Source of the DNA: Flavihumibacter cheonanensis
Lineage (GTDB): Bacteria > Bacteroidota > Bacteroidia > Chitinophagales > Chitinophagaceae
Reading direction: 5' to 3'
Assembly: GCF_022352215.1 (NCBI RefSeq)
Contig: NZ_JAKRWF010000003.1
Coordinates: forward strand, 165,854 to 229,853
DNA: 64,000 nt
The position numbers and the translations under genes were made by a program. The notes beneath the pieces are model-generated. The model did no database searches. It worked only from the letters and a program-made list of their open reading frames with translations, and had not been told where the DNA came from. Numbering within the stretch: position 1 is the first letter of the stretch; each line of letters starts with the position of its first letter. Below are positions 12,805 through 43,212 of the stretch, piece after piece.

Positions 12805-12944
12805 CCAATTTACGGCCAGATCGGAAAAGCTGCAACCTTTTATGCTTTGAATTCGTATTTTCGCGAATTAGCGTCTTATTCAACCAGTTATGAGCGATAG
12901 ACGACCGAAAGACACGATTGAAAAAAGATTAAAACAATCCATCA

Positions 12945-14510: not shown

Positions 14511-14526
14511 CATTTTTTTATTTTAC

Positions 14527-14558
14527 TTTTGAATATTCACAATCTTTCTCTTACCTTT
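14527..14558 (+). promoter_or_regulatory. Candidate Bacteroidota sigma-A promoter for rplS (TTTG -33-like element and a TAccTTTG -7 element)
   Basis: A TTTG at 14527-14530 and TACCTTTG at 14551-14558 are separated by about 20 nt, and the -7 element lies 25 nt upstream of the rplS ATG. Confidence 0.4.
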
Positions 14559-14582
14559 GCCGTCCGATAAAAAAAGAACGTC

Positions 14583-14942
14583 ATGAACGCAGTAGCATTT
14601 GTTCACGAGCAATTAACCCCCAAAAGAGAATTTCCTAAATTCAAAGCGGGCGATAACGTGACTGTAAATTATAAAATTGTAGAAGGAAATAAGGAGCGTA
14701 TCCAGAGCTTTAAAGGGGATGTGATCAAACGTCAGGGCCAGGGAACTACCCAAACCTTTACTGTTCGTAAAATCTCTGACGGTGTGGGAGTTGAAAGAAC
14801 TTTCCCCCTGTTCAGCCCGAACATCGATTCTATCGCGGTTCACAAAGTTGGTAAAGTACGCAGAGCGAAACTCTATTTCCTGCGTGAGCGTAGTGGTAAG
14901 AGTGCTCGTATCAAGGAAAAGAAAATGGCAGTTGCTAAATAA
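14583..14942 (+). CDS. rplS: 50S ribosomal protein L19
   Basis: It is 119 aa with conserved L19 sequence. Confidence 0.95.
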
Positions 14943-14963
14943 GCAATTCACATTAAAAATAAC

Positions 14964-14988
14964 AAACCGCCTTTTGGCGGTTTTTTTT
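14964..14988 (+). terminator. Rho-independent terminator after rplS
   Basis: The stem is AAACCGCC/GGCGGTTT with a 4-nt loop followed by a T-run. Confidence 0.7.
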
Positions 14989-15082
14989 GTGTTCAAATCT
15001 AATGCTGTTATAAAACCGTATCTTTACAAACTACAAAATCAATTTTAGCATGTTAGTAGCTAATCAATTATTAATGATTTCA

Positions 15083-15274
15083 ATGCCAGGAGGCAGTGAG
15101 TGGATCCTGATCATCCTGGTGGTATTGCTGTTATTTGGTGGAAGAAAGATTCCGGAACTGATGCGTGGGCTTGGCCGTGGTATCCGTGAGTTCAACGATG
15201 CAAAGAACAATGTGAAAGAAGAAATTGAACAGGGCATTAAGGAGAAAGATAAAACCACATCTCCCCAGCAGTAA
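15083..15274 (+). CDS. tatA: Sec-independent protein translocase TatA/E (start probably at the internal Met of the 15050 ORF)
   Basis: [37 protein letters not shown] is a canonical TatA TM helix followed by an amphipathic helix. Confidence 0.8.
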
Positions 15275-28205: not shown

Positions 28206-28287
28206 GCGGGCGTGGCGAAACTGGCAGACGCACCAGACTTAGGATCTGGCGCCGCGAGGCATGTAGGTTCGACTCCTATCGCCCGCA
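28206..28287 (+). tRNA. tRNA-Leu (anticodon UAG), class II with a long variable arm
   Basis: I folded the cloverleaf by hand. The acceptor stem is GCGGGCG/CGCCCGC. The anticodon stem is CCAGA/TCTGG with loop CTTAGGA. The T-arm is GTAGG-TTCGACT-CCTAT. CCA is not encoded. Confidence 0.85.
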
Positions 28288-28295
28288 CAAACGAA

Positions 28296-28326
28296 GCGAT
28301 CGTTCAATGAACGATCGCTTTTTTTA
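28296..28326 (+). terminator. Rho-independent terminator after tRNA-Leu
   Basis: A perfect 10-bp stem GCGATCGTTC/GAACGATCGC with a 3-nt loop is followed by T7. Confidence 0.7.
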
Positions 28327-29001
28327 TATCAGATGCTGGTATACGGCTACCAGTTTCCAAAAGCCGGTTTCAGGGCCAGGTTTCACCGGCAATTTCCGTA
28401 GCTCATTCAGCACGAATAAAAGCTGTTCATCCTGCCATTCAAAATTCCCAAGGATAAGTTCCTGATCAGTCAGAAAAAGTCCCTTTTTCCCAATACAGAG
28501 ATGGAAATTTTCTTCTGAAACTGCTTCAAAAACCAGTACATCCCTTGGTTGATACCCTGAAAATGAACTATGATGTACCATAGTTGATTGATACGAAACC
28601 GCCAGCAGGGAGTGATAATTAAGTTCCGGCAGTGTCAGTTTGGGGAAAATGTCCAGCTCTGTAAACTTTATTTCGCGGTAGGAAGCTTTTAAAAAGATCG
28701 TTTCGCTAAGAAAAGGAACCTGTCTTAGTTGCATTTGAAGGAGCCGCTGTTCTTCTTCCAGCAGTTTATCGCCATTGAATTGCAGTATTTCGTTGATAGT
28801 CAGGGTTCGGGTAATAAAGGCCTCAAGAGGTATGCAAAAATAATTGGCAATACGAAGTGCAGTTTCAAGTCGGGGTTCCGCCCTGTTCTCTTCATAGGAA
28901 GAGATATTTCCCCGGGTGAGTTCAAATAATTCGGCAAATGCCAATTGGCTTAGCCCTTTGGCTGTTCTAATTTTTTTAATATTGGCGCCGATCCTCGTCA
29001 T
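28324..29001 (-). CDS. XRE-family (Cro/C1-type HTH) transcriptional regulator with an uncharacterised C-terminal domain
   Basis: The N-terminal IKKIRTAKGLSQLAFAELFELTRGNISSYE matches the HTH_XRE pattern. It is divergent from the PspA/flotillin gene set. Confidence 0.7.
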   Translation of the reverse strand: MTRIGANIKKIRTAKGLSQLAFAELFELTRGNISSYEENRAEPRLETALRIANYFCIPLEAFITRTLTINEILQFNGDKLLEEEQRLLQMQLRQVPFLSETIFLKASYREIKFTELDIFPKLTLPELNYHSLLAVSYQSTMVHHSSFSGYQPRDVLVFEAVSEENFHLCIGKKGLFLTDQELILGNFEWQDEQLLFVLNELRKLPVKPGPETGFWKLVAVYQHLI

Positions 29002-29007
29002 TCACTC

Positions 29008-29035
29008 AAAGATAAGTGATATTCTTTTTATCTTT
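29008..29035. promoter_or_regulatory. Inverted repeat AAAGATAA-N12-TTATCTTT in the divergent promoter region between the XRE regulator and the pspA-module genes. It is a candidate operator.
   Basis: A perfect 8-bp inverted repeat sits within 10 bp of the regulator start codon. Confidence 0.35.
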
Positions 29036-29095
29036 ATGCCAATTTTTTTTGCATTTTTTATTTTTTTCAGTAGATTTGTTAGGAACCTTCTGAGC

Positions 29096-29494
29096 ATGGC
29101 AAATCATTATATAGAACAAATTGAAGCCTTTACCCGGCAGTTGGACTGCAGGATTCTGTATCGAAACGAGCAACAGGGCATACTGAAGATTGATAATCCC
29201 GCAGACGGCATCCACAACCTGATCATCGGTATTGCACCTCCGATCCTGATTATGGAGCAGTTTCTGTTTTCCTTCCAGCAGGACCATTGTGATATGTTCA
29301 AACAACTGCTGCAGAAAAACAGGGATACTATACATGGCGCATTTGTTATAAATGAAGAAGGCAATAAAGTGTTGTTTCGGTATACCATGCAACTGGAGCA
29401 TATAAATTTCAATGAGTTTGAAGGAGCGATCAATTCACTGGGACTTCTGCTCAGTGAATATGCAGACCAAATCATTGATTTTTCAAAGCGGTAG
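29096..29494 (+). CDS. Small cytoplasmic protein resembling the YbjN/YjfI-like (T3SS-chaperone-like fold) family. It is the first gene of the pspA module.
   Basis: It is 132 aa from the internal Met of ORF 28916..29494. The upstream part of that ORF overlaps the regulator gene. The family assignment is from memory of motif pattern only. Confidence 0.4.
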   Translation: MANHYIEQIEAFTRQLDCRILYRNEQQGILKIDNPADGIHNLIIGIAPPILIMEQFLFSFQQDHCDMFKQLLQKNRDTIHGAFVINEEGNKVLFRYTMQLEHINFNEFEGAINSLGLLLSEYADQIIDFSKR

Positions 29495-29529
29495 CAATAA
29501 CTGATTTTATCATATTCAAAACTGTAAAC

Positions 29530-30243
29530 ATGAACATTTTTAAACGACTTTTCCGGATCGGACAGGCTGAAATACATGCCGCGGTTGAAAAAATGGAAGA
29601 TCCGGTTAAAATGACAGAACAGGGACTGAGGGAACTTCGCAAAGACCTGGCGGATGCCACTGAAGCATATGCGAAAGTAAAAGCGCTTGCCATCCGAACC
29701 GAAAATGAACAACTCCATTGCCAGAAAGAATCGCTGAATTATGCAGAAAAAGCTATTTTAATCATGCAGAAGGCGCAGGTTGGCCAGGTAGATATGAATA
29801 AAGCGGAAGCGTTAGCTAGGGAAGCCTTATCACTCCGAAGAAAATTCTGGACAGAATCGGAGGAACTGGGCAACCAGGTACTATCGTTGCAGCAGTCGTC
29901 CCGGGAGATGTTGAGGAACACAGAGATCCTTAAGGAAAATATGGAGAAATGGGAAAAAGAATTGAGGACCTTAAAAGCAAGAGCAACAGTAAGCAAGGCT
30001 ACAGAACAGGTAAATAAACAACTTGCCCAACTGGATACCAACGGAACCATTGCTATGCTTGAACGAATGAAAAACAAAGTGGAAGACCAGGAGGCCCTGG
30101 CAAAAGCTTATGGAGAAATTGCCGGTGCCAAAAGCAACTTAAAAGATGAATTGAACGACTTGGTAAAAGATGATTCGTTTTCCATTGAAAAAGACTTACA
30201 AGCCATCAAGGAAAAACTAGGAATAAATCAAAACCTTGCTTAA
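29530..30243 (+). CDS. pspA: PspA/IM30/Vipp1 family protein (phage shock protein A-like; ESCRT-III superfamily)
   Basis: The N-terminal MNIFKRLFRIGQAEIHAAVEKMEDPVKM matches the PspA signature. It is 237 aa and all coiled coil. Confidence 0.9.
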   Translation: MNIFKRLFRIGQAEIHAAVEKMEDPVKMTEQGLRELRKDLADATEAYAKVKALAIRTENEQLHCQKESLNYAEKAILIMQKAQVGQVDMNKAEALAREALSLRRKFWTESEELGNQVLSLQQSSREMLRNTEILKENMEKWEKELRTLKARATVSKATEQVNKQLAQLDTNGTIAMLERMKNKVEDQEALAKAYGEIAGAKSNLKDELNDLVKDDSFSIEKDLQAIKEKLGINQNLA

Positions 30244-30246
30244 GTT

Positions 30247-30927
30247 ATGTCTGATTTTTTTGATCTGCTGTTTCATCCGCTGAGTAATGCTATAATGACG
30301 GTATTAACCGGCATCACTGCTATCTACTGGCTCTTTACTTTTATTGCCGGGGATTTCTTTGGAGACGGGGGAGCAGAGGCAGACATGAATGTACATGGAG
30401 CAGATGTAGATACAGATACCGAATCAGATCTGAGCGATTCCAGTGGCGACAAATCCTTTTTCGATAAGGCCCTGGAATATATCAATATCGGCAAAGTGCC
30501 ATTTATGGTAGTGTATTCTACTTTTAAATTTATCGCCTGGATCATAACTCTGGTTTCTTCTGTAACCCTTGGCCTGGCAGCATGGGGATGGAAATCAGTT
30601 TTTATCCTGCTACCGGTTTTCCTTGTCACTTATTTCATCACCCGATATGCCACCAAACCGTTGGTGAAAGTATACGCTGCAATGGGATATAACGGCGAAG
30701 AAGCGGTAGATCTTATCGGACGAAATGCCATTATGCGTTCAACTATTTCCGGTGAAACCATTGGCGCTGCAGAACTCAAAGTCCAGTCGGATATCATCCG
30801 GATCAATGTAAAAAGCAAAACAGGAGAAGCCCTACTCTATGATGCCCAGGTCATGATTGCCGATGAATCAGCAGATAAAAAATATTATCTAGTTATTCCG
30901 GAAATAAATCTGTCCAATATTGTATAA
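30247..30927 (+). CDS. NfeD/YqiJ-like membrane protein (three TM helices plus a C-terminal OB-fold-like beta domain), a flotillin-associated partner
   Basis: The TM topology, the C-terminal beta-rich segment and its position directly upstream of an SPFH/flotillin gene match the yqiJ-yqiK and nfeD-floT pairing. Confidence 0.6.
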   Translation: MSDFFDLLFHPLSNAIMTVLTGITAIYWLFTFIAGDFFGDGGAEADMNVHGADVDTDTESDLSDSSGDKSFFDKALEYINIGKVPFMVVYSTFKFIAWIITLVSSVTLGLAAWGWKSVFILLPVFLVTYFITRYATKPLVKVYAAMGYNGEEAVDLIGRNAIMRSTISGETIGAAELKVQSDIIRINVKSKTGEALLYDAQVMIADESADKKYYLVIPEINLSNIV

Positions 30928-30986
30928 ACTGGATTCTGCTAGTATATTACCAACCAAACATATAACCTGTAAACCTTTAATCAACT

Positions 30987-33014
30987 ATGGGAGCACTTGG
31001 CGGCATTAGCCTACTGCTGATCGGCGGTATCGTTTTTCTGATTTTCATCGTATTATTTGCATTTGCCACTTTTTACAAAAAAATTCCGCAGGGTAAAGCC
31101 ATTGTGCGTACCGGCGTTGGTGGTGGTAAAGTTGCATTCAACAAAGGAATGTATGTGATTCCCATTTTACATAAAATGGAGATCATGGATATCTCCGTTA
31201 AAAAACTGCAGATCGACCGGATGGAAAACGATGGTCTGATCTGTAAGGATAATATCCGGGCAGACATCAAAGTGGCCTTCTTTGTACGCGTAAATAAAAA
31301 CGTGGACGATGTTCTCAATGTAGCCCAGATTATAGGCACTGAAAGAGCCAGTGATGTGGATACCCTCCGCAATTTATTCGAAGCCAAATTTTCTGAAGCG
31401 CTGAAAACTGTGGGAAAGAAATTCGATTTTATCGAACTCTATGAAGCACGTCGTGAGTTCAGAACAGAAATTCTCAATATCATTGGTACAGATCTGAATG
31501 GGTATATCCTGGACGACTGCGCGATTGATTACCTGGAACAAACAGAAATCTCTTTTTTGAGCCCCCAGAATATCCTTGACTCACAGGGTATCAAAAAAAT
31601 TACGGAGTTAACCGCAGAACAAAACATCAAAGCAAACCTGATCAAGCGGGAAGAAGAAAAAGTAATTAAGAAACAAAACGTGGAAGCAAGGGAAGCAATC
31701 CTTGAGCTGGAACGTCAAATGGCAGAGAAGGAAGAAAAGCAACGCCGCGAAATCGATAATATTAAAGCACGCGAAAATGCGGAGATCATGAAAGTGAGGG
31801 AAGAAGAGCGACTGAAAGCAGAATCGGTGAAAATTAAAACAGAAGAGTCGCTCGCCATACAAGAACAGAACAAACTTCGCCAAATCATAATCGCAGAGAA
31901 AAACAAACTCAGAACCGATGCTGTGGAAACCGAAAGAGTGGAAAAAGACCGGGCACTCGAAGCAACCGAAAGAGAAAAGATCGTAACACTGGCGCAAATT
32001 GAGAAAGAGAAAACAGTGGAAGTGGAACGGAAGAATATTCAGGATGTAATTAAGGAACGGGTTCGCCTGGAAAAGGGCGTAGTGGAGGAACAACAGGGTA
32101 TCAAAGACCTCGAAGCCTTCCGTGAAGTTGAGCGTAATAAAACAGTGGGTATAACAGAAGCGAGTCGGGAAGCCGAAGAAAAACTCATCTTCACCGTAAA
32201 AGCTGCCGAAGCAGATAAGAAAGCTGCCGAGGAAAAAGCCAGACAATTAATCATCGATGCAGAGGCTAAAAAAGAAGCAGCTGTTAAACAGGCAGAAGCC
32301 AGGAAGATTTTGGCGGATGCCCAGGCCAGAGAAGAAGCAACCCTTGGCTTATCTGAAGCAGAAGTTATGATTGCAAAAGCTGAAGCAGCAGAACGCCAGG
32401 GCGCAGTGGATGCAACGGTGATTGAAAAAATTGCAGAAGCTAAACGCAAGGAAGGGTTGACACAGGCGGAAGTAACCAGGGAAAAAGCGCTTGCAGAAGC
32501 AGCAGGAATCCAGGAGAAAGCAGAAGCCATGAAGAAGCTGGATGCGGTTGGTAAGGATCACGAAGAATTCAAACTGCTGCTCCAGAAAGAAAAAGACATC
32601 GCTTTGGCGCAAATTCACATTCAGAAAGATATCGCAGACGCGCAGGCCGATGTATTGGCTGAAGCCCTGCGCACTGCGAAAATCGATATTGTTGGAGGTG
32701 AAACCATGTTCTTCCGGAATATAGTAAACCAGATTTCCAACGCCAAAGGATTTGACCGTCTGATCAATGAAAGTGAACATGCTACGGATATAAAGAAGGC
32801 GCTGATCGGCGATGGCAGCAACAGTGGTGATCTCCTCGAACGTATACGGGAATTTGCCGACAAGTACAATATCTCCACAAATGATATCAAGAACCTGACC
32901 ATATCCAGCCTCATTCTGAAAATGCAACAACAGAGTTCAGACGCCGACCGCCCGATGTTATTAAACCTGGCAAACCTGGCGAGCAGTCTGGGCATTTCTA
33001 ACAAAAAGCTCTAA
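30987..33014 (+). CDS. Flotillin-like SPFH/Band-7 protein (YqiK/FloT-like) with a long E/A/K-rich coiled-coil region
   Basis: It has an N-terminal TM helix, an SPFH domain (KAIVRTGVGGGKVAFNKGMYVIP) and an extended EA-repeat flotillin coiled coil. Confidence 0.9.
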   Translation: MGALGGISLLLIGGIVFLIFIVLFAFATFYKKIPQGKAIVRTGVGGGKVAFNKGMYVIPILHKMEIMDISVKKLQIDRMENDGLICKDNIRADIKVAFFVRVNKNVDDVLNVAQIIGTERASDVDTLRNLFEAKFSEALKTVGKKFDFIELYEARREFRTEILNIIGTDLNGYILDDCAIDYLEQTEISFLSPQNILDSQGIKKITELTAEQNIKANLIKREEEKVIKKQNVEAREAILELERQMAEKEEKQRREIDNIKARENAEIMKVREEERLKAESVKIKTEESLAIQEQNKLRQIIIAEKNKLRTDAVETERVEKDRALEATEREKIVTLAQIEKEKTVEVERKNIQDVIKERVRLEKGVVEEQQGIKDLEAFREVERNKTVGITEASREAEEKLIFTVKAAEADKKAAEEKARQLIIDAEAKKEAAVKQAEARKILADAQAREEATLGLSEAEVMIAKAEAAERQGAVDATVIEKIAEAKRKEGLTQAEVTREKALAEAAGIQEKAEAMKKLDAVGKDHEEFKLLLQKEKDIALAQIHIQKDIADAQADVLAEALRTAKIDIVGGETMFFRNIVNQISNAKGFDRLINESEHATDIKKALIGDGSNSGDLLERIREFADKYNISTNDIKNLTISSLILKMQQQSSDADRPMLLNLANLASSLGISNKKL

Positions 33015-33032
33015 CCGTAAGTGAATGATTGA

Positions 33033-36000
33033 TTGATGGAGGTAAAAGCAGGAATGGATACAAACCGACAGGATGTGCTGGATGCAGGCACATATGAAAT
33101 CATCCGGAACCGTTTGCAGGAACAACGCATTGAATTGTCCGGCAGACTGGCACAATTAAACCAGGCAAGGAAAGAGATTTTCAATTCTTCCGGATTTCAA
33201 TTGATCGCCAACCAACGTATCAGTACGGACAACAATGGCGTGGCCCGGGGCATAACTGCCATCGGTAATACTACCCTCTTCGCCTATAATGTTCACTTTG
33301 GACTTCGGGAGGATATCAAATTATCGGATGTATTCAGCATCTATACTTTCACAGGCGATCACTTTGAGCCTCAGCCATTAAGTATACTGGAAGATCCCGC
33401 ATTTATAACTGATTATACCAACCTTTATAAATACTATCGAGACTCCATTTTTGCCGGATTCCATCAAAAGCAGAATTATCTGTACATGGTATTTCAGACC
33501 AGCAAAAATCCGGATGACCGAAAAGCATTCAAATGGCTGATCCGAAATGGACAGTTGATCTACCAGGACGACCGGAGTATTCACGAGGTCAGAAAAGCAG
33601 CTCAACATGATTTTAAGTGGATCCAGACCGATCTGAGCAACCGTAGGCTGGGTGTACATCCGCATATTTCCATCTTGGATAAAGTGTTTATTGAAGCATT
33701 GAATGGTGATATCACTTTCAAGATTGAAAACAATACAGATACCGGAAAGGGCATATTTTCAGACCCTGTAAATAACCGGGATCAACAATTGGATGATGCC
33801 TTCTATTATTATGCCGACCTGGGTAACCTGATCGCCATAAAGATCAAACCCTACCAGGAAGATTTCCGGGCTTATATCTTTAATGTAAGGACGAAGGAGG
33901 TCACCTCCATACCCAGTTTGGTAGAAGCGGGTATTGTATTGCCGGAGAACCAGGGTATAATTTTTTCGAATGGATATTACCTTCAGAGCGGTGAATACAA
34001 ACTATTTGAAAACGGCCTAACGGATCTTGAATTCATACAAAGTACCGCATCCCCCAACGGTGAAGATTTTCTGTATTGCTTTTACCAGCGGACATCCAAC
34101 ATTTATGTACTGATGTCCTATAACATAATTTCCCGGCAGGTGGAAACTCCGATTATCTGCAATGGATATACAATTTATGATGATGGTAAACTAGTTTATT
34201 TCCGGTCTGAAAATGAAGCGATCCGTCATCACCAGGTACAGATCTGGCAAACACCCTATACCAGTACACTTCAGGAGAATCCGAAACTGGTCAATAATTA
34301 TCTCTACAAAATCGGCAACAAAGACATTGTGGCTGCCATGAGTGAATGCCAGGAAGTATTGCAGTTGATTCAAAAGGAAGACAGTTACGAAGGACTGTAT
34401 GAAGATATCCTGAAAAAATCGTCGGATATCCTGGATGCCTATTTCTGGATCAAAGAGGATGTGGCAGGCAACCTGGCTCAACCACTGACGCAGATCCAGT
34501 CTATCGCCAATACAGCAATAGATGAATTTGCAAAAGTGCAGTCGCAACGCAAGCATGCACGGGAAGTGCTGCTCTCCATGAAGAAAAAAGTGGAGCAACA
34601 GGTGATCGACATCAAGAACGCCTCCATTCAAACACTGGATCAACTGGTACGAATACTGGCGGATACCCGCGGAATGCAGGGCACTGTAATCGATCTGCTT
34701 AATGTTAAGTATGTTGATACAGAAGCTGTGCAACAATTGAGAGAGGTTTTGCAGACCTATAACCAGTCGCTTTCTGAGGATACCGTACAGTTCCTGCTGA
34801 AGGAAGAAGCACTGTTACCCTACGAACAGAAAGTGGCTGACCAGAAGCAGGCAATTGAGCGCATTCAAAAAGCAGTGGATGCGCAACCTGTTTCAGAGGC
34901 CATTCAGGAAATCGCCAAACAACTGGAAATGGTGATTGATATCCTGAACAGCCTTAAAATTGAAGACAGCACACAAACCACGCGGATTATTGAAAAAATC
35001 GCTGTTATTTTCTCTTCCTTAAATGAAGTGAAAGCGGCGTTAACCCGAACTGTTTCCAACCTCAAGACCAGGGAACTTACGGGTGAGTTCCATGCACAGC
35101 TCACCTTACTGGAACAAAGCATGGTAAACTTTCTGGACCTCTCCGATACCCCTGAAAAAGCCGATGAATACTTTACGAAAATCAGCATCCAGGTTGAAGA
35201 ACTGGAGAGTAAGTTCGCCGATTTTGAGGAATTTGTACTGAAGATCGCAGAAAAAAGAGAGGACATCAGTAAAGCGTTTAGTGGTAAAAAAGAAATCCTG
35301 CTAACACAAATCAATAAACGAACCGGCAGCCTGGAACAAATCGGTTTGCGGGTACTAAAGAATATTGAAAATAAGGTTCAGTCGCTCGATAAGAAAGAAA
35401 GCATCTATGCATTTTTTGCATCGGACCTTATGATTGATAAGGTTCGTAACCTGGCTGAAGAATTAAAGACTTTAGGTGATGTAGCCAAGGCCGAAAATTT
35501 GCTGAACCTGATCAAGCTGACCCAGGAAAATGCGCTTCGTCAGCTTCGCGATAAAACTGAACTCTTTACTGGCGGCAACAACATATTATCGCTCGGCAAT
35601 TACAAGTTCATTGTAAACAAGCAGGTACTGGATCTGAATATTGTAAGAAGAAATGAACAACTCTATTACCATTTACTTGGTACCAGTTTTTACAAGGAGA
35701 TTCGGGAGGAAAAACTCTATGCTTATCAGTCTATATGGGACCAGGAGATAATTTCAGAAAATAAGGAAGTATATCGCGCCGAGTTTCTTGCCTATGATGC
35801 TTTCCTGGCGGGTAAACAAGGTGCACAGGATTGGGATGCTGCTGCTTATATCAATGAAAAAACGGAACGTGATTTCGCGGCAGGTTATATTAAAGGGGTA
35901 CATAATACAGATGCTTTAGCAATTTACCAGGCATTGAAAAAGCTACAGGAAGAATTGGGCATCCTTCATTATTCACCAAAGCTGAGAGCCAGTGCGCAAT

Positions 36001-37886
36001 TGTTCTGGATGGAGCTGGATGAGCCGGTGCAGAAACGACTCCGGCAATTAATAACTGCCACCCATTCCATTGAAAAAAGTTTTCCTCAAAGCAGGCAGTT
36101 TGAATTTGCTGAGAATGAAATCGTAAGCACTATTATGAAGACTGAACCGACAATAAATAGAGAAACCGCCGCAGAGATGGCAGTCTATTTGTACCGGGAG
36201 TTTTCAGTAAATAAAGATTTCACAACAAGCCAGCAGGCTTACCAGCTGACAAAATCCTTTAAGGAGTACCTCCAGCAAAACAAACGACTGGAGGCATTTC
36301 ACCAGGAAACCGAAAACCAGGAATTTACCAATCGGGAACGATTCCAATTAATTCAAAGCTGGCTACAGGCTTATCTTCATACTATTCCGGGTGAAACAAC
36401 CAATTGGTATCTGACCGAAGCAGTTGCATTACAGGTATTCAGCCAGCATCCTTTTAAACAAAAAACTGGTGCTGATATAACGGTGCTGGATACACTAAAA
36501 GGAACACATACTGTGATACAGGATGGAAAATATTCCTTGCATTTTCACAGTTTTATTGAAAAACTTCAGCAATACAACCGTACCATAGTACCCGCTTTCA
36601 CAGCTTTCAACCAGGAAAAAGGGAAGCTGATCAAAACCTATCGCAACCAGCTGAAGATTTCAGAGCTGGAACCTAAAGTATTAAGTTCGTTTATTCGTAA
36701 CCGCTTGATCAATGAAGTTTATTTTCCTTTAATCGGGGCGAACCTGGCCAAACAGATCGGGGCTGCAGGTGATGATAAAAGAACCGCAAGGATGGGCATG
36801 CTTTTGCTGGTATCACCTCCAGGGTATGGTAAAACCACATTGATGGAATACCTCGCAAAAACGATGGGACTACATTTCGTGAAAATCAATGGGCCGACTA
36901 TCGGACACAAGATCAGCTCCATTGATCCATTGGAAGCTACCACATCAGGTGCCCGGGAAGAACTTAAAAAAATCAACCTGGCCTTTGAGATGGCCGACAA
37001 TGTGATGCTTTATATTGACGATATCCAGCATTGCAGTGCGGAATTCCTGCAAAAATTCATTTCACTGGCCGATGGACAACGAAAAATGGATGGCATTTTT
37101 GAAGGAGAAAGTAAAACCTACGACCTCCGTGGAAAACGATTCTGTGTAGTAATGGCGGGCAACCCTTATACAGAAAGCGGTGAACAATTCAAAATACCGG
37201 ACATGCTGGCCAACCGGGCAGATGTGTATAATCTCGGAGACGTAATTGGCAATTCAGATTCCTTATTCCAGCTGAGCCTGATTGAAAACTCCGTAGCCGA
37301 AAACAGTTACCTGCAGAAAATCACGAATAAAAGTTTTACGGACCTCTACAAACTGATTCAATACCTGGAGGACGGAGCAGAAACCATACCTGAACTGGAG
37401 GGGAATCACAGCCAGCAGGATTTGGAAGATGCGATGAAAGTACTGAAACACATGCTTCGCATACGCAATATCGTTATACAAGTCAATCAGCAATACATAG
37501 CCAGTGCTGCCATGAAAGACGCCTACCGAACGGAACCGGCATTCAAACTGCAGGGATCCTATCGCAATATGAACAAGCTGGCAGGAAGGGTGGTACCATT
37601 GATGAATGAGGAGGAGATAAGAGACCTGATCCGTGCTCATTATGAAGGAGAATCACAAACCCTCACTTCGGACGCAGAAGCCAATCTGTTAAAACTGAAA
37701 GAAATCGCTGGACTGCTTACTGAAGAAGAGGAAACCCGCTGGAAAGAGATTCAATCTATCTTCAGGAAAAACAATCGTTTTGGGGGAATGGCCGGCCAGG
37801 ACAGCACGGGTCTATTTCTTCAGCAAATGAGTGCTTTTAATGAGCAACTCGAAGCTATCGCGGATGCACTACGAAATAAAAATTGA
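33033..37886 (+). CDS. Giant (1617 aa) protein with a C-terminal Lon-like AAA+ ATPase module and no protease domain. The N-terminal ~1150 aa are beta-rich then alpha/coiled-coil and uncharacterised.
   Basis: It has Walker A LLLVSPPGYGKTTLMEYLAK, Walker B VMLYIDDIQHC, sensor-1 CVVMAGNP and the arginine region KIPDMLANRADVYNL, which resembles Lon NIPAPLLDRMEVIRL. There is no Ser-Lys protease motif. There is an 18-bp gap after the flotillin gene. Confidence 0.7.
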   Translation: MMEVKAGMDTNRQDVLDAGTYEIIRNRLQEQRIELSGRLAQLNQARKEIFNSSGFQLIANQRISTDNNGVARGITAIGNTTLFAYNVHFGLREDIKLSDVFSIYTFTGDHFEPQPLSILEDPAFITDYTNLYKYYRDSIFAGFHQKQNYLYMVFQTSKNPDDRKAFKWLIRNGQLIYQDDRSIHEVRKAAQHDFKWIQTDLSNRRLGVHPHISILDKVFIEALNGDITFKIENNTDTGKGIFSDPVNNRDQQLDDAFYYYADLGNLIAIKIKPYQEDFRAYIFNVRTKEVTSIPSLVEAGIVLPENQGIIFSNGYYLQSGEYKLFENGLTDLEFIQSTASPNGEDFLYCFYQRTSNIYVLMSYNIISRQVETPIICNGYTIYDDGKLVYFRSENEAIRHHQVQIWQTPYTSTLQENPKLVNNYLYKIGNKDIVAAMSECQEVLQLIQKEDSYEGLYEDILKKSSDILDAYFWIKEDVAGNLAQPLTQIQSIANTAIDEFAKVQSQRKHAREVLLSMKKKVEQQVIDIKNASIQTLDQLVRILADTRGMQGTVIDLLNVKYVDTEAVQQLREVLQTYNQSLSEDTVQFLLKEEALLPYEQKVADQKQAIERIQKAVDAQPVSEAIQEIAKQLEMVIDILNSLKIEDSTQTTRIIEKIAVIFSSLNEVKAALTRTVSNLKTRELTGEFHAQLTLLEQSMVNFLDLSDTPEKADEYFTKISIQVEELESKFADFEEFVLKIAEKREDISKAFSGKKEILLTQINKRTGSLEQIGLRVLKNIENKVQSLDKKESIYAFFASDLMIDKVRNLAEELKTLGDVAKAENLLNLIKLTQENALRQLRDKTELFTGGNNILSLGNYKFIVNKQVLDLNIVRRNEQLYYHLLGTSFYKEIREEKLYAYQSIWDQEIISENKEVYRAEFLAYDAFLAGKQGAQDWDAAAYINEKTERDFAAGYIKGVHNTDALAIYQALKKLQEELGILHYSPKLRASAQLFWMELDEPVQKRLRQLITATHSIEKSFPQSRQFEFAENEIVSTIMKTEPTINRETAAEMAVYLYREFSVNKDFTTSQQAYQLTKSFKEYLQQNKRLEAFHQETENQEFTNRERFQLIQSWLQAYLHTIPGETTNWYLTEAVALQVFSQHPFKQKTGADITVLDTLKGTHTVIQDGKYSLHFHSFIEKLQQYNRTIVPAFTAFNQEKGKLIKTYRNQLKISELEPKVLSSFIRNRLINEVYFPLIGANLAKQIGAAGDDKRTARMGMLLLVSPPGYGKTTLMEYLAKTMGLHFVKINGPTIGHKISSIDPLEATTSGAREELKKINLAFEMADNVMLYIDDIQHCSAEFLQKFISLADGQRKMDGIFEGESKTYDLRGKRFCVVMAGNPYTESGEQFKIPDMLANRADVYNLGDVIGNSDSLFQLSLIENSVAENSYLQKITNKSFTDLYKLIQYLEDGAETIPELEGNHSQQDLEDAMKVLKHMLRIRNIVIQVNQQYIASAAMKDAYRTEPAFKLQGSYRNMNKLAGRVVPLMNEEEIRDLIRAHYEGESQTLTSDAEANLLKLKEIAGLLTEEEETRWKEIQSIFRKNNRFGGMAGQDSTGLFLQQMSAFNEQLEAIADALRNKN

Positions 37887-37978
37887 GCAGGTTTTGAAAT
37901 AATCACAATTTAACCTGACAAATATCAGGTTCTCATTAAATTAGGGTAGTGTAATTTCAGGTAATAAAATTAACCATC

Positions 37979-38803
37979 ATGAACGCTATCCTGGTTGCTA
38001 CCGATTTTTCGAATCCTAGTCGCGGTGCCGCCGCTTATGCTGCAGCCCTTGCCAAATTAAATGGCGCAACTCTCACTTTACTGCATGCCTATCTATTACC
38101 CACACCTGTAAGCGAAGTTCCCTATGTGATGGTTTCCGTGGAAGAATTGCAGAAAGACAATGAGAAACTGGTGAAGGAAATGGCGGAGGGACTGGAAAAC
38201 CAATATGACATCAAGGTTCAAACGCTGGTGACGATTGGACTTCCGGCGGATGAAGTTGTATACCAGGCAACTGAAATCGGAGCCGATCTGGTGGTAACGG
38301 GGATGCGTGGAGTAACGAATACCCTTGACAAACTGATTGGAAGCACCACAGCAGCCATTATGAGGAAGTCTACCGTACCAGTGCTGGTAGTACCAGAGCA
38401 ATCGGTTTACGCACCCTGGAAGCAGGTGGTATACGCTACTGATTTCAGCTATACGATGAATTTGCGTTGCTTGAAAATGCTTAAGGTTCTATCAGGAAAT
38501 CAGCCTGATATGCATATGAAAATCGTTTATGTACAAAGACCGGGTGAAATTATGTCAGCCGAACAGATAGCAGGCAAGGTACGGCTGGATCCCATGTTGG
38601 AAACAATACCCCATAGTTATCTCGACCTGGAACATGTATCGGTAGAAGAATCCCTCAAACAATACCTGCACGACCATCCAACGGACGTGCTGGTAATGGT
38701 TGCTCATAAACACAGTTGGTGGGAACGCCTGTTCAGCGGAAGTCATACCCGTGAAATGGTGTACCAGTCGGAAATTCCTTTGTTGGTTCTTCAGGATAAA
38801 TAG
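37979..38803 (+). CDS. Universal stress protein (tandem UspA domains)
   Basis: It is 274 aa with two Usp repeats (MNAILVATDFS and a second domain with VVYATDFS). Confidence 0.85.
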   Translation: MNAILVATDFSNPSRGAAAYAAALAKLNGATLTLLHAYLLPTPVSEVPYVMVSVEELQKDNEKLVKEMAEGLENQYDIKVQTLVTIGLPADEVVYQATEIGADLVVTGMRGVTNTLDKLIGSTTAAIMRKSTVPVLVVPEQSVYAPWKQVVYATDFSYTMNLRCLKMLKVLSGNQPDMHMKIVYVQRPGEIMSAEQIAGKVRLDPMLETIPHSYLDLEHVSVEESLKQYLHDHPTDVLVMVAHKHSWWERLFSGSHTREMVYQSEIPLLVLQDK

Positions 38804-38898
38804 GACTTGTCAATTGCCAATTGCTTCTTACCTTTGCCCCCCATTTTAAGGCAAGCAAAACTGCTTTTGCCCATTTGTATCAACAAAAAACACCATTT

Positions 38899-40278
38899 AT
38901 GGCAACCGTAACGAGGGAAAATATTGGCCAGTTGAACGACAAGATTACTGTGAAACTGTCAAAAGAAGACTACCTGCCCTCCTTCGAGAAAGCACTCAAA
39001 AATTATAGCAAGCAGGCAAATATCCCCGGATTCCGGAAAGGAATGGTTCCGGCCGGCCTGATTCGCAAAATGCACGGTCAGTCGGTATTTACTGATGAGG
39101 TATTGCGCACGGTAGAAAAGCAACTGAGTGATTTCATGGTAAATGAAAAGCTCGAAATTTTCGCTCAACCACTTCCCCTGCCGGAGAACGACAGTGCTAA
39201 CCTGGACCATATGTCTCCTTCAGAGTACTCCTTCGCGTTTGAAGTTGGCCTGAAGCCGGAAATCAGAGTTGCCGACCTCAAAGCTGCCAAATTGCCCTAT
39301 TACAAGATCACTGTTTCTGAAGAAATGCTGGACGAGGAAACCAATCGCCTGCAACTTCGGAATGGAAATATGACCGAGCCAGAACTGGTAGATAATGAAG
39401 AAAATGTGCTGAACCTGAGCTTCCAGGAACTGGACGAAAATGGCGCCGTGAAAGAAGATGGCGCCAAGAAAGATAACTCTGTCCTGGTTAAATATTTCGC
39501 ACCTGCCTTCCGTAGCCAGCTGATGGGTAAGAAAAAAGACGATGTTTTTCAACTGACCCTTAGTGAAGCATTCGAAGAGAAGGAAAGAGAATGGATCCTG
39601 AGTGACCTGGGCCTCTCCAAAGAAGATCCTGCTGCCAGTGGAAAAAAATTCCAGGCTACCATTACCAAAGTAGGGCTGGTTGAAAAAGCTCCTTTGGATG
39701 AGAATCTTTTCAAAGCCATTTTCCCGGGAAAAGAAATTGCTGATGAAGCCGGTTTCCGCGCAGCACTGAAAGAAGATATTGAATTACAACTGGATAATCA
39801 GAGCCGAAACCAATTGTACGATAGCATCTACCATTACCTGATTGACCAGACCCAGATCGAGTTTCCGGAATCCTTCCTGAAGCGTTGGATGCAGCAGGGT
39901 GGGGAGCAGCCCAAAACGGCAGAACAGGCGGAAAAAGAATATCCTTCTTTCGCTAACTCCCTGAAATGGACCCTGATTGTAGATCAGCTGGTAAAAGACA
40001 ATCAAATCGAAGTAAACCAGGACGATCTGCGTGGTTTTGCCAAAGCACAACTGTTTTCCTATATGGGTAACATGAATATGGGACAACTTGACATTGAGCA
40101 ACCCTGGGTGAATGATTATGTAGAACGAATGATGAAAGATCGCAAATTCGTGGAAGACAGCTATCACCGCATCCAGACCGACAAAATTTTCAATGTGGCA
40201 GAAAACCTGGTGACAAGAGATGAAAAGCCGATCAGCCTGGAAGATTTCCAGAAAATGCAGGCGGAGCATCACCACTAG
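38899..40278 (+). CDS. tig: Trigger factor
   Basis: The start is taken at the internal MATVTRENIGQLNDKITVKL of ORF 38821. It has the ribosome-binding motif GFRKGMVP, and tig-clpP-clpX synteny is conserved. Confidence 0.9.
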   Translation: MATVTRENIGQLNDKITVKLSKEDYLPSFEKALKNYSKQANIPGFRKGMVPAGLIRKMHGQSVFTDEVLRTVEKQLSDFMVNEKLEIFAQPLPLPENDSANLDHMSPSEYSFAFEVGLKPEIRVADLKAAKLPYYKITVSEEMLDEETNRLQLRNGNMTEPELVDNEENVLNLSFQELDENGAVKEDGAKKDNSVLVKYFAPAFRSQLMGKKKDDVFQLTLSEAFEEKEREWILSDLGLSKEDPAASGKKFQATITKVGLVEKAPLDENLFKAIFPGKEIADEAGFRAALKEDIELQLDNQSRNQLYDSIYHYLIDQTQIEFPESFLKRWMQQGGEQPKTAEQAEKEYPSFANSLKWTLIVDQLVKDNQIEVNQDDLRGFAKAQLFSYMGNMNMGQLDIEQPWVNDYVERMMKDRKFVEDSYHRIQTDKIFNVAENLVTRDEKPISLEDFQKMQAEHHH

Positions 40279-40282
40279 GAGG

Positions 40283-40360
40283 TGAGACGTGAGATGTGAG
40301 ACGTGAAAAGTGAAAGGTGAAAGAAGGGTGAAAAGTGAGACGTGAAATGTGAGAAGGGTG
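40283..40360. repeat. Degenerate heptamer array of the GTGARAN family (GTGAGAC, GTGAGAT, GTGAAAA, GTGAAAG and others, about 11 units), related to the perfect array at 28118
   Basis: The plus strand is purine-rich with 7-nt periodicity and lies in the intergenic region after tig. Confidence 0.85.
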
Positions 40361-40383
40361 TATGGAGGATAAATGTCCTGAGA

Positions 40384-40413
40384 ATATAATAGACCGTGTG
40401 GTTGCCCCACACG
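40384..40413 (+). terminator. Rho-independent terminator for tig
   Basis: The stem is CCGTGTGG/CCACACGG with loop TTGC followed by a T-run. Confidence 0.65.
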
Positions 40414-40439
40414 GTTTTTCTTTTCCCAGCCAGAGCGGT

Positions 40440-40500
40440 ATTTGGGGTTTCCCTTCTTCCATTCCTCCATCTTCCATTCCCCCCTCTTCCCTACCCCCTC
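40440..40500. repeat. Pyrimidine-only tract. On the minus strand it is a GGA-rich purine repeat that shares GGAATGGAAGATGGA with the locus at 62469.
   Basis: It is about 60 nt of almost pure C/T on the plus strand. An exact 15-mer is shared with 62473-62490 in the opposite orientation. Confidence 0.8.
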
Positions 40501-40609
40501 TTCCATACCTTTTTGTCAGCCCGACTGCCGTTTTTTGCAATGATTTTCAATTGGAAAGGTATTTGCACCAGTCCATTGCCTTATTTTTATCAAAACAACG
40601 AGGATTATT

Positions 40610-41296
40610 ATGAAGTCTGAATTTGAAAAATATGCGGTCAAGCACCGGGGCATCTCGAGTCTGACCCTGCACGATTACCAGAAATATCAGGTAACCAACC
40701 TGACACCGAATATTATTGAAGAGCGTCCGATGAACATTGCGGTGATGGATGTGTACAGCCGTTTGATGATGGACCGCATCATTTTCCTGGGATACCCCAT
40801 TAATGATGAAGTGGCCAATATTGTGACAGCGCAGCTTCTTTTCCTGGAGAGCACTGATCGCACCCGGGATGTGCAGATGTATATTAACTGTCCGGGTGGC
40901 AGTGTGTACGCCGGATTGGGCATGTACGACACGATGCAGTTCATCACACCCGATATTGCGACCATTTGTACAGGAATGGCAGCATCCATGGGTGCTGTGC
41001 TAATGTGTGCAGGTACGAAGGGCAAAAGAACAGCGCTGAAGCATAGCCGTATTATGATGCACCAACCGTCCGGGGCAATTGGCGGGCAGGCATCTGACAT
41101 CGAGATTACAGTAAATGAGATCCGTAAGCTTAAAAAGGAATTATACGAAATCATCTCACATCATACCGGCAAAGGCGTAAAGCAGGTGGAAAAAGACTGT
41201 GATCGCGATTACTGGCTGACTGCGATGGAATCGAAAGAGTACGGACTGGTGGATGAAGTATTACTGGTAAATCCCAGAAAGGAAAATAAAGACTAA
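40610..41296 (+). CDS. clpP: ATP-dependent Clp protease proteolytic subunit (ClpP paralogue 1)
   Basis: The catalytic triad context is present: GMAASMGA (Ser), IMMHQPSG (His) and DRDYW (Asp). The canonical N-terminal axial region is present. Confidence 0.9.
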   Translation: MKSEFEKYAVKHRGISSLTLHDYQKYQVTNLTPNIIEERPMNIAVMDVYSRLMMDRIIFLGYPINDEVANIVTAQLLFLESTDRTRDVQMYINCPGGSVYAGLGMYDTMQFITPDIATICTGMAASMGAVLMCAGTKGKRTALKHSRIMMHQPSGAIGGQASDIEITVNEIRKLKKELYEIISHHTGKGVKQVEKDCDRDYWLTAMESKEYGLVDEVLLVNPRKENKD

Positions 41297-41314
41297 TCTT
41301 AAACTATTGATGCT

Positions 41315-41941
41315 ATGAATAGGACTAATTATTTCTCCTACCGGATGGACGAGGAGGAAGAAGAAAAACAGCGGGAAGACAAACGCGATGAGCTGATGAT
41401 GCTTAATAAGCGACTTGAAAAATACTTTTTCGATGAGCGGGCCGTTTATTTATGGGGACCGGTGGATGATAAATCTGCCAAAGAAGTGGTAACCAAAATA
41501 CTACTCCTGGATGCCGATAAAAAAGAAGAGATCAAGTTCTTTATTAATAGTCCGGGTGGTGTAGTAACCAGTGGTATGGTTATTTACGATACCATGAAGA
41601 TGGTTAAAAGTCCGATCAGCACCATTTGTATGGGATTGGCAGCCTCCATGGGTTCCATCCTGCTGAGTGGTGGCGAAAAGGGCAGAAGGTTCATTTACCC
41701 TCATGGTGAAGTGATGATCCACCAGCCCAGTCTGGGTGGTTACATGCAGGGAGTGAGTGCGGATCTGGAAATCCAGGCCAAACAGACCAAGAGAGTAAAG
41801 GAAATGGGAGCTAAGATACTGGCGGAGAATTGTGGCAAAACGGTTGCCCAGATCATGAAGGATTTTGACCGCGATTACTGGATGGATGCCAAAGAAGCGA
41901 TTGATTATGGCATCGTAGATGGCATCATGGAAAAACTCTAA
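41315..41941 (+). CDS. Second ClpP-family subunit (ClpP paralogue 2) with a divergent, acidic N-terminus
   Basis: It has GLAASMGS (Ser), VMIHQPS (His) and DRDYWM (Asp). The N-terminal 45 aa ([15 protein letters not shown]) are unlike canonical ClpP. Confidence 0.8.
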
Positions 41942-41979
41942 GGAAAGGTTACCTTTGCGGGAAGCAAGCAACAGAGCGT

Positions 41980-43212
41980 ATGGCAAAAAATACATTACAT
42001 TGTTCATTTTGTGGCCGCAGTCGGGATGAAGTAAAAATCCTGATTGCTGGGCAGGATGGGCATATCTGCGAGAACTGCGTGGAACACGCCAGGGAAATTA
42101 TCGAACAGGAATTATTAACCCGTACCGATGGCGCAGGATCCGGATTCAAGTTAACGGTTAAGAAGCCGATCGAAATCAAGCGGTTTCTGGATGAATATAT
42201 AATCGGACAGGACGAGGCTAAAAAAGTACTTGCAGTAGCTGTTTATAATCACTACAAAAGACTCCAGCAGAAACCCACCGAAAATGAGGTGGATATTGAA
42301 AAGAGCAATATTGTAATGGTTGGTGAAACGGGAACGGGTAAAACCCTGCTTGCTAAAACCATCGCCAAATTATTGAACGTTCCATTTGCTATTGTTGATG
42401 CAACTGTATTTACAGAAGCAGGTTATGTGGGTGAAGATGTTGAAAGCATCCTGACCCGCTTATTGCAGGTATGTAATTATGATGTAACGGCAGCGGAAAG
42501 AGGGATTGTATATATTGACGAGATCGATAAGGTTGCAAGAAAAGGGGATAATCCTTCCATCACACGCGATGTAAGTGGTGAGGGTGTTCAGCAGGGATTG
42601 TTGAAGCTGCTGGAAGGAACCGATGTATTGGTTCCACCACAAGGTGGCCGTAAACATCCGGAACAGAAACTGATTAAGATCAATACGCAAAACATTCTCT
42701 TCATCTGCGGCGGTGCATTTGATGGCGTAGACAAGCTGATTGCCCGTAGGGTAAACACGAACGCTATTGGTTTCAATGTCAACAAAGACCAACAGGAAAC
42801 TGCCCGTAAGAACCTGTTGCAATTTGTAAACGCGCAGGATCTGAAACATTTTGGATTGATCCCTGAATTACTGGGACGTTTACCCGTTGTAACTTTCCTG
42901 AATCCGCTGGATGCAGAAACCTTACGCAGCATTTTAACCGAACCGAAAAATTCGTTGATCAAGCAGTACAAAAAACTGTTTGAAATTGAAGGAATAGAAC
43001 TTACCATCGATAATGACGTACTGGATTTCATGGTAGCCAAAGCGATGGAGTACAAACTTGGCGCCAGAGGATTGCGTTCCATCTGTGAAAGCATTCTAAC
43101 CGATGCGATGTTTGAACTACCCTCCAGCAAGGAAACCAAATTCCACCTCAACCTGGAATATGCGGAGAATAAATTTGATAAGAGTAAAATGAGCCTGCTG
43201 AAAGTGGCGTAA
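41980..43212 (+). CDS. clpX: ATP-dependent Clp protease ATP-binding subunit ClpX
   Basis: It has the C4 zinc finger (CSFCGR...CENC), Walker A GETGTGKT and Walker B YIDEIDK. Confidence 0.95.

Follow-up and report, generated by a model that had tools for sequence, protein, structure and literature searches.

A conserved NfeD-flotillin-ATPase operon with PspA and a divergent XRE regulator in Flavihumibacter cheonanensis

Does a giant AAA+ ATPase that is encoded directly behind genes for PspA and flotillin belong to the same operon, and on which of these membrane scaffolds might it act? The question is raised by a locus of Flavihumibacter cheonanensis at positions 28324-38803 of the 64,000-nucleotide (nt) stretch of DNA that was analysed (the window). 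The locus comprises a regulator gene of the XRE family and, divergent from it, six plus-strand genes that code for a small CesT/Tir-YbjN-like protein, PspA, a short NfeD membrane protein, a flotillin, an ATPase of 1617 amino acids (aa) and a universal stress protein (Usp). The open reading frames (ORFs) and their divergent arrangement are as an earlier note on this DNA had given them. That note regarded all six genes as one module and suggested for the ATPase a function analogous to that of the eukaryotic and archaeal Vps4. The present analysis shows a real, conserved membrane-stress operon that encodes a membrane-associated module. Its core is a unit of NfeD, flotillin and a cytoplasmic ATPase of about 1600 aa, and this core is found in at least five phyla.

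Conservation of the gene neighbourhood

A genome scan with one genome per species found a relative of the ATPase in more than 582 species genomes, and 80 loci from Bacteroidota, Planctomycetota, Verrucomicrobiota, Desulfobacterota and Bacillota were compared. The six-frame ORFs of these loci were searched with iterated profiles made from the window proteins, and adjacency was counted in the 64 loci whose sequence extends at least 3.6 kb beyond the ATPase gene on its upstream side. Flotillin is encoded immediately before the ATPase in 62 of the 64 loci, and the YqiJ-type NfeD gene was found in 61. For the separate phyla the numbers of loci, of flotillin genes directly upstream and of YqiJ genes are 41, 40 and 40 in Bacteroidota, 7, 7 and 7 in Planctomycetota, 10, 10 and 9 in Verrucomicrobiota, 2, 1 and 1 in Desulfobacterota, and 4, 4 and 4 in Bacillota. 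The adjacency of the ATPase gene is conserved in related genomes, it is kept with flotillin and NfeD across five phyla, and the gene order recurs in dozens of genomes. The proposal of the earlier note that the giant ATPase is a true operon partner is borne out by these counts.

The order of all six genes is conserved in part. The NfeD-flotillin-ATPase portion is kept in the five phyla, while the XRE/CesT/PspA portion is mostly a Bacteroidota addition and the Usp gene is not a conserved member. PspA is encoded upstream in 33 of the 41 Bacteroidota loci. In 32 of them the CesT-like gene stands directly upstream of PspA and the XRE gene is divergent from this pair. The additions made in Bacteroidota are a CesT-like chaperone, PspA and a divergent XRE protein, predicted to be a cI/LexA-like repressor.

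No PspA gene was found upstream of the triad in the 23 non-Bacteroidota loci with enough upstream DNA. Two loci show other arrangements. PspA is encoded downstream on the opposite strand in locus L031, and in L051, from a planctomycete of the Anaerohalosphaeraceae, a divergent PspA (positions 6790-7479 of that locus; PspA_IM30, E 2e-13) is encoded on the same strand directly downstream of the ATPase. The profile trained on Bacteroidota PspA scored this protein at only E 0.038, and a jackhmmer search seeded with it returned the same 35 PspA genes as the first profile and no others. The association in L051 looks independent of the Bacteroidota arrangement. PspA is a recurrent but optional partner. 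Counting the upstream position and the two downstream ones, on either strand, it has three arrangements, and the constant partners of the ATPase are flotillin and NfeD, not PspA.

It is important to compare this locus with systems already described. The earlier note held that such an ATPase was not a described partner of these genes. This does not stand, as Ravi et al. (mSystems 2024, PMC11237479; bioRxiv 2020) describe an operon class of CesT/Tir, PspA, YqiJ/YuaF, flotillin and AAA+ protein, including a Bacteroidota example. The example is the Dokdonia donghaensis locus near ANH61663.1, which has a divergent cHTH+protease gene, and shorter flotillin-YqiJ(-ATPase) operons are reported to be more widespread (PMC11237479). 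The same authors draw the analogy to ESCRT and Vps4 and propose ESCRT-like membrane dynamics and remodelling (PMC11237479). The window locus is a member of this class, and neither its gene set nor the idea is new. It has the same genes in the same order, in the same phylum, with a divergent cro-like helix-turn-helix (HTH) gene. The CesT-PspA order and the YqiJ-flotillin pair are present, and the C-terminal AAA+ module and the large size of the ATPase are confirmed; for the part in front of this module the published description gives an N-terminal beta-propeller and a coiled coil. No architectural difference was seen, and the window adds a flanking, non-conserved Usp gene. It is an ordinary member of a published, experimentally unexplored operon class. 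The new points are the MoxR/dynein type predicted for the AAA+ module, an invariant Asp-Asp in its Walker B motif and a conserved 17-nt palindrome over the -33 element of the operon promoter.

The operon bacABCDEF of Pseudomonas aeruginosa (PA3732-PA3727) looks like a proteobacterial counterpart. It is co-transcribed according to reverse-transcription PCR, and BacB to BacF are raised 6- to 13-fold in a bacA mutant (PMC10948618). It likewise begins with a small protein of CesT/YbjN fold, followed by PspA (BacB), a short NfeD protein, an SPFH protein and PA3728, which is listed as an ATPase in the literature. The NfeD and SPFH proteins are PA14_16160 and PA14_16180 (PaFlo3), respectively (PMC13086221). 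However, BacA belongs to the DUF2170/YjfI family, while the small protein of the window is of the CesT_Tir_1 family and has no DUF2170 match. The bac operon also differs in its proposed sigma-54 dependent promoter, where the window has an XRE gene, and in its sixth gene, bacF. Two cluster look-ups for a P. aeruginosa member of the ATPase family gave proteins of Vibrio, Nocardia, Streptacidiphilus and Aureibacter and metagenome proteins instead.

The gene pairs yqiJ-yqiK of Escherichia coli and yuaF-floT of Bacillus subtilis also join a short membrane protein of NfeD-like type to a flotillin of FloT/YqiK type encoded behind it. To our knowledge, these operons carry no giant ATPase, PspA or XRE regulator.

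The ATPase and its partner proteins

The giant ATPase has no hydrophobic segment in its 1617 residues. It has at least 3422 homologs at E <= 1e-10 and 343 representatives of 50%-identity clusters at E <= 1e-30. Full-length members of 1550-1930 aa are found down to 25% identity, and the same four genera as above are represented by name. The only part recognised in the earlier note was a Lon-like AAA+ module. This description needs revision on two counts: domains DUF3686 and DUF7902 are also present, and the AAA+ module resembles MoxR and dynein by structure comparison. From the N terminus on, the protein has a DUF3686 head, a long and probably helical middle part, and an AAA+ ring module of predicted MoxR/dynein type. 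The DUF3686 region has been described as beta-propeller repeats (Ravi et al., PMC11237479). A profile search of the PDB found no sequence homolog for DUF3686, a literature search on 'DUF3686' returned no paper mentioning it, and no biochemistry of the giant ATPase was found in the literature searched. The domain-library search detected no VWA, MIT, Vps4_C, protease, nuclease or DNA-binding domain in the protein.

The C-terminal 400 residues, which hold the AAA+ module, are the best conserved part. The Walker A motif SPPGYGKT (aa 1261-1268), the sensor-1 residue Asn1377, Arg1395 and Arg1511 are invariant, and motif comparison suggests that the two arginines are the arginine finger and the sensor-2 residue. 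The Walker B motif has Asp-Asp (D1329-D1330, window positions 37017-37022) in place of Asp-Glu throughout an alignment of 28 diverse members.

Sequence matches of the module to solved structures (Rix7, p97, midasin and RuvB) are confined to the Walker A region, and Lon is not among the top 60. An assignment to the classical AAA clade from these matches was rejected, as they span only that region. In an AlphaFold2 (AF2) model of aa 1205-1617, with a predicted local distance difference test score (pLDDT) of 85.9, a beta-hairpin separates the Walker B strand from that of sensor 1. The values of the structure comparison are highest for the remodelling chaperones CbbQ (16.9) and NorQ (16.0), both of the MoxR family. 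They are followed by midasin (14.8), dynein (13.4-14.0), NVL (13.1), Lon (11.7) and Vps4 (11.2-11.6). A Foldseek search agrees, with a generic AAA+ fold in which CbbQ and NorQ have the top template-modelling scores. Because of this ranking the module, as modelled, is assigned to the MoxR/dynein type and is neither Lon-like nor Vps4-like. The known MoxR chaperones CbbQ, NorQ and RavA are of about 260-500 aa and have a VWA partner; the window ATPase, with its 1200-aa N-terminal extension, is far larger and has no VWA protein in its operon.

Two public records of ATPase homologs deserve mention. One homolog is called a 'SepF-like cell division protein' by the Joint Genome Institute, probably in error. 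Another, 71% identical, is filed as Nostoc ellipsosporum and is probably a Chitinophagaceae contaminant in that assembly.

The 675-aa protein encoded next to the ATPase has no match of its own in Pfam, NCBIfam or PDB sequence searches, and Band_7 is not found even at E 10. Its assignment to the SPFH/flotillin proteins, made in the earlier note, holds through its relatives and lacks a direct profile match. The orthologs are at least 49% identical to it, 3 of the 24 members of the ortholog alignment match Band_7 (best E 3e-13), and public sources call its close homologs flotillin, SPFH or YqiK. We accept the SPFH assignment on this orthology. The protein has one transmembrane (TM) segment, at aa 1-34. 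An AF2 model had a pLDDT of 48 (from an alignment of 20 sequences, 91% identical) and was unusable for a fold search, and QmcA was rejected as a PDB relative, the profile match being a compositional coiled-coil match only. Although Band_7 of Pfam misses the window protein, flotillin is the most conserved component of the operon. Among the listed homologs from Chitinophagaceae and Cytophagales its identity is 86-95%, and between phyla it is still 49-57%; the corresponding values for the ATPase are lower, 63-95% and about 41-44%.

For the 226-aa protein the earlier description as an NfeD/YqiJ-like membrane protein is supported in its YqiJ part. The YqiJ_N match has 19.8 bits, under the curated cut-off of 23, and 10 of the 24 orthologs match the same family (best E 1e-6). 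Three hydrophobic segments are found at about aa 15-35, 88-110 and 113-136. The C-terminal OB-fold domain of NfeD has no Pfam match in the window protein or in the 24 orthologs. The label 'short NfeD' is used because the literature gives this relationship for YqiJ/YuaF proteins.

The small first protein had been called YbjN/YjfI-like. Its strongest match is CesT_Tir_1, the YbjN resemblance remains as a weak match, and the YjfI part falls away, with no DUF2170/YjfI match in Pfam. PDB searches, a profile search included, found no sequence homolog of it. The identity of PspA is secure: the PspA_IM30 match has 132.9 bits against a cut-off of 33.9 and covers aa 2-228. Its orthologs are 40-85% identical.

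What the ATPase may act on

The reading that we favour, with moderate confidence, is that the ATPase would serve as an ATP-driven remodeller of flotillin/NfeD scaffolds, or of clients held there, with PspA as an optional partner. It is consistent with the conserved linkage and with the resemblance of the AAA+ module to remodelling chaperones. SPFH cages are known to pair with AAA+ machines, for example HflK/C with FtsH. The likeness would be that of an SPFH scaffold functionally coupled to a ring ATPase at the membrane. However, FtsH is a classical-clade AAA protease anchored in the membrane; the ATPase of the window is a soluble protein of predicted MoxR/dynein type in which no protease domain was found.

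We infer the following sequence of physical interactions from the genes. Flotillin and NfeD would build a membrane-anchored SPFH scaffold on the cytoplasmic face. The ATPase would oligomerise through its AAA+ module, and its long arms and DUF3686 heads would grip the scaffold or clients within it. ATP turnover could then drive assembly, disassembly or client release. The CesT-like protein would keep PspA, its partner, and PspA would be drawn to the same damaged patches of membrane to form a repair polymer, which might be a second substrate. The XRE protein is predicted to repress both divergent promoters by way of the 17-nt palindrome over the -33 element.

Several points weigh against the proposed remodelling of flotillin/NfeD scaffolds. 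Flotillin is absent beside the ATPase in two of the 64 loci (L052 and L065). The Asp-Asp form of Walker B suggests that hydrolysis may be slow or switch-like. MoxR-type ATPases are usually paired with a VWA/MIDAS partner and none is detectable here, as no operon protein has such a match in Pfam and no conserved extra gene lies within or 3' of the operon. The flotillin of the window has no direct SPFH profile match and its model has the low pLDDT given above. The link of PA3728 to the window ATPase is drawn from the name 'ATPase' that the literature gives it, and deletion of paFlo3 in P. aeruginosa gave only mild phenotypes (PMC13086221).

A Vps4 model along the lines of the earlier note takes the PspA polymer as the main substrate, which the ATPase would disassemble or recycle with ATP. 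The likeness to the ESCRT-III/Vps4 pair is that the gene for a protein of the ESCRT-III superfamily has an AAA+ ATPase gene as its neighbour. In the 33 Bacteroidota loci PspA and the ATPase share an operon, and PspA adjoins the ATPase in the two other arrangements. Ravi et al. (PMC11237479) propose ATP-dependent remodelling for PspA-AAA+ associations, and which ATPase disassembles the polymers in bacteria is regarded as an open question in reviews and structural papers. However, even with the cross-phylum PspA profile, 27 of the 28 non-Bacteroidota loci and several from Bacteroidota show no PspA within 10 kb, and flotillin and NfeD stay beside the ATPase there. The ATPase is linked more tightly to flotillin than to PspA. 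The modelled AAA+ module, with its hairpin between the Walker B and sensor-1 strands, falls outside the classical clade that holds Vps4, and the MIT and Vps4_C domains were not found with Pfam. This phyletic pattern and the AAA+ type weaken a Vps4-like reading with PspA as first substrate, and we consider it unlikely.

A second alternative makes the ATPase a MoxR-like maturation chaperone for a client membrane complex, the flotillin/NfeD scaffold being only a workbench that corrals the client. The closest structures do act on client enzymes, CbbQ being a Rubisco activase and NorQ maturing nitric oxide reductase, and flotillins are thought to concentrate client complexes. Yet no conserved client gene lies in or beside the operon, the genes between flotillin and ATPase and those downstream are not conserved, and Pfam found no VWA adaptor. 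This explanation is likewise unlikely.

According to a review of 2025, bacteria appear to lack a Vps4-like ATPase. The operon class offers a concrete motor candidate for the disassembly of PspA polymers or flotillin cages, with relatives in the many species genomes counted above. The present analysis shifts the focus to flotillin/NfeD as the conserved partner and to an ATPase that is MoxR/dynein-like in its predicted fold, and the conserved candidate operator gives a handle on regulation. In its widest form the idea would be that this ATPase is the missing ATP-driven remodeller of bacterial membrane scaffolds, of flotillin/NfeD cages and also of PspA polymers where they are co-encoded, and so a counterpart of Vps4 from another AAA+ clade. 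We put this forward as a speculative possibility.

A different role would be that of an anti-phage or conflict system on a mobile island. An XRE regulator with a large ATPase is common in defence islands, a tRNA-Leu gene adjoins the locus, and the genomic context of the module differs between genera. However, PADLOC gave generic HTH matches and one marginal P-loop match and no defence assignment, and the components are strongly conserved, flotillin being 86-95% identical across orders, unlike fast-evolving defence genes. The tRNA adjacency is found only in the window and a close relative. The PADLOC result and this very strong conservation make a role in defence unlikely, and markedly less likely than the alternatives above. 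That the giant protein is a DNA repair ATPase with incidental membrane-gene neighbours, as its Pfam description ('ATPase involved in DNA repair' for DUF3686) and the NCBI name of homologs ('DNA repair ATPase') would have it, is most improbable, given that no DNA-binding or nuclease domain was detected in it, that its neighbours are membrane proteins in 62 of 64 loci of five phyla and that DUF3686 is unmentioned in the literature searched; the NCBI name is likely a misnomer, unsupported by the gene context.

Divergent promoters and flanking genes

The features of the locus are collected in Table 1. The five gaps between the six plus-strand ORFs are of 35, 3, 59, 18 and 92 nt, the first of them separating the CesT-like and PspA genes, and the XRE-CesT intergenic region has 94 nt. 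The start of the small protein is taken as ATG 29096 and not GTG 28916, because the ORF from the GTG overlaps the XRE gene.

Table 1. Positions of genes, protein domains and candidate regulatory sites of the locus, numbered in the window.
Feature	Positions	Strand	Basis or remarks
XRE-family regulator, 225 aa	28324..29001	-	HTH_3, E 2e-10 (Pfam); N-terminal HTH and divergent C-terminal domain
Candidate -7 box TATCTTTG for the XRE gene	29007..29014	-	Matches Bacteroidota TAnnTTTG; 5 nt upstream of XRE ATG
8-bp inverted repeat AAAGATAA-N12-TTATCTTT	29008..29035 (arms 29008-29015, 29028-29035)	.	Perfect
17-nt palindrome TGCCAATTTTTTTTGCA	29037..29053	.	Consensus TGCNAA-N5-TTNGCA; candidate XRE operator
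Candidate operon -7 box TAGATTTG	29071..29078	+	17 nt upstream of CesT ATG, 19 nt after TTTG; TAnnTTTG position kept in orthologs; putative function
CesT/Tir-YbjN-like small protein, 132 aa	29096..29494	+	CesT_Tir_1 PF22550, E 9e-47; YbjN E 4e-4
PspA/IM30 protein, 237 aa (bacterial ESCRT-III superfamily)	29530..30243	+	PspA_IM30, E 2e-38
YqiJ/YuaF-type short NfeD membrane protein, 226 aa, ~3 TM	30247..30927	+	YqiJ_N, E 1e-3
FloT/YqiK-type flotillin (SPFH), 675 aa	30987..33014	+	Orthology; N-terminal TM, divergent SPFH domain, long helical region
Giant soluble ATPase, 1617 aa	33033..37886	+	Pfam matches; start TTG 33033 or ATG 33036
DUF3686 domain of ATPase (aa 34-471)	33132..34445	+	PF12458, E 9e-160
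DUF7902 of ATPase (aa 592-672), within middle region ~aa 480-1200	34806..35048	+	PF25472, E 1e-24
C-terminal AAA+ module and helical tail of ATPase (aa 1205-1617)	36645..37886	+	AAA/AAA_5 at aa 1257-1381; catalytic motifs
Usp, 274 aa	37979-38803	+	Two Usp domains, E 1e-37

The HTH of the XRE protein is strongly conserved. A profile of its C-terminal domain gives repeated weak matches to the LexA C-domain (E 0.14-0.6), a faint resemblance to LexA/S24 proteins, and the column of the catalytic Ser is not conserved; the regulator of the published class has a protease-like C-terminus at this place.

The perfect 8-bp inverted repeat reported earlier in the shared promoter region is present. However, the orthologous spacers do not keep it, and such a repeat arises in 3.5% of shuffles of the AT-rich spacer; it was rejected as an operator on the ground that orthologous spacers lack it. 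Its left arm overlaps the TATCTTTG box. The position of this box implies a near-leaderless XRE transcript, if it functions as a promoter element as the Bacteroidota consensus suggests. The sequence CAAAGATA recurs beside the XRE start in loci L001, L003, L033 and L038.

The 17-nt palindrome is the better candidate operator. It is found in 21 of 33 XRE/CesT spacers, from five Bacteroidota classes, with a density of 3.8 per kb in the spacers and 0.033 per kb elsewhere in the same loci (about 115-fold), and 22 hits compare with 0.07 expected in shuffles. The -33 TTTG of the operon promoter (29048-29051) lies within its right half. In 14 of the 21 palindrome-bearing spacers the distance from the TTNG of this half-site to a downstream TAnnTTT[G/A] box is 19-20 nt, a spacing that is the -33/-7 geometry known for Bacteroidota promoters. 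Because the palindrome overlaps the -33 element, a repressor bound to it would be expected to cover that element. Sites of the sigma-70 type were no more frequent than in shuffles, in a scan that is not made for Bacteroidota promoters.

In Flavobacteriia the XRE-CesT spacers (loci L015, L020, L021, L036 and L043) are 200-340 nt long and contain two or three further related half-palindromes, such as CTAACAATATTAGCTAA. This suggests that multiple operators may be present there.

The Usp gene had been counted as a member of the module. It adjoins the ATPase gene in the window copy only, and is assigned to the flank because relatives do not keep it after the ATPase. Among the loci compared, the neighbours Usp, tig and relA were seen only beside the window copy, and the ATPase-Usp spacer folds no better than shuffles (z -0.77). 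The syntenic relative L083, whose ATPase is 75% identical, shares the relA...Usp-tig-clpP-clpX synteny. In it, genes for an extracytoplasmic function (ECF) sigma factor and for proteins of 207 and 369 aa intervene between ATPase and Usp (positions 12933-15202 of that locus), and these three inserted genes mark the 3' boundary of the module.

No conserved gene was found between flotillin and ATPase or after the ATPase in the loci compared. A conserved protein of about 183 aa is encoded after the ATPase gene in three Bacteroidota loci (L019, 6277-6828; L037, 7084-7632; L078, 4687-5235).

On the other side of the module, the tRNA-Leu gene (28206-28288, plus strand) is followed by a terminator-like hairpin with a 13-bp stem (28293-28321), and the two together separate relA/spoT from the XRE gene at its 3' end. 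A tRNA-Leu gene is found at the equivalent site in L083 and not in five other genera. Beyond Usp the window continues with a housekeeping cluster (38821-43212) of tig, two tandem clpP paralogs (40610-41296 and 41315-41941) and clpX. The start of tig is probably ATG 38899 rather than TTG 38821, and a strong terminator-like hairpin is located 3' of this gene at 40391-40417.

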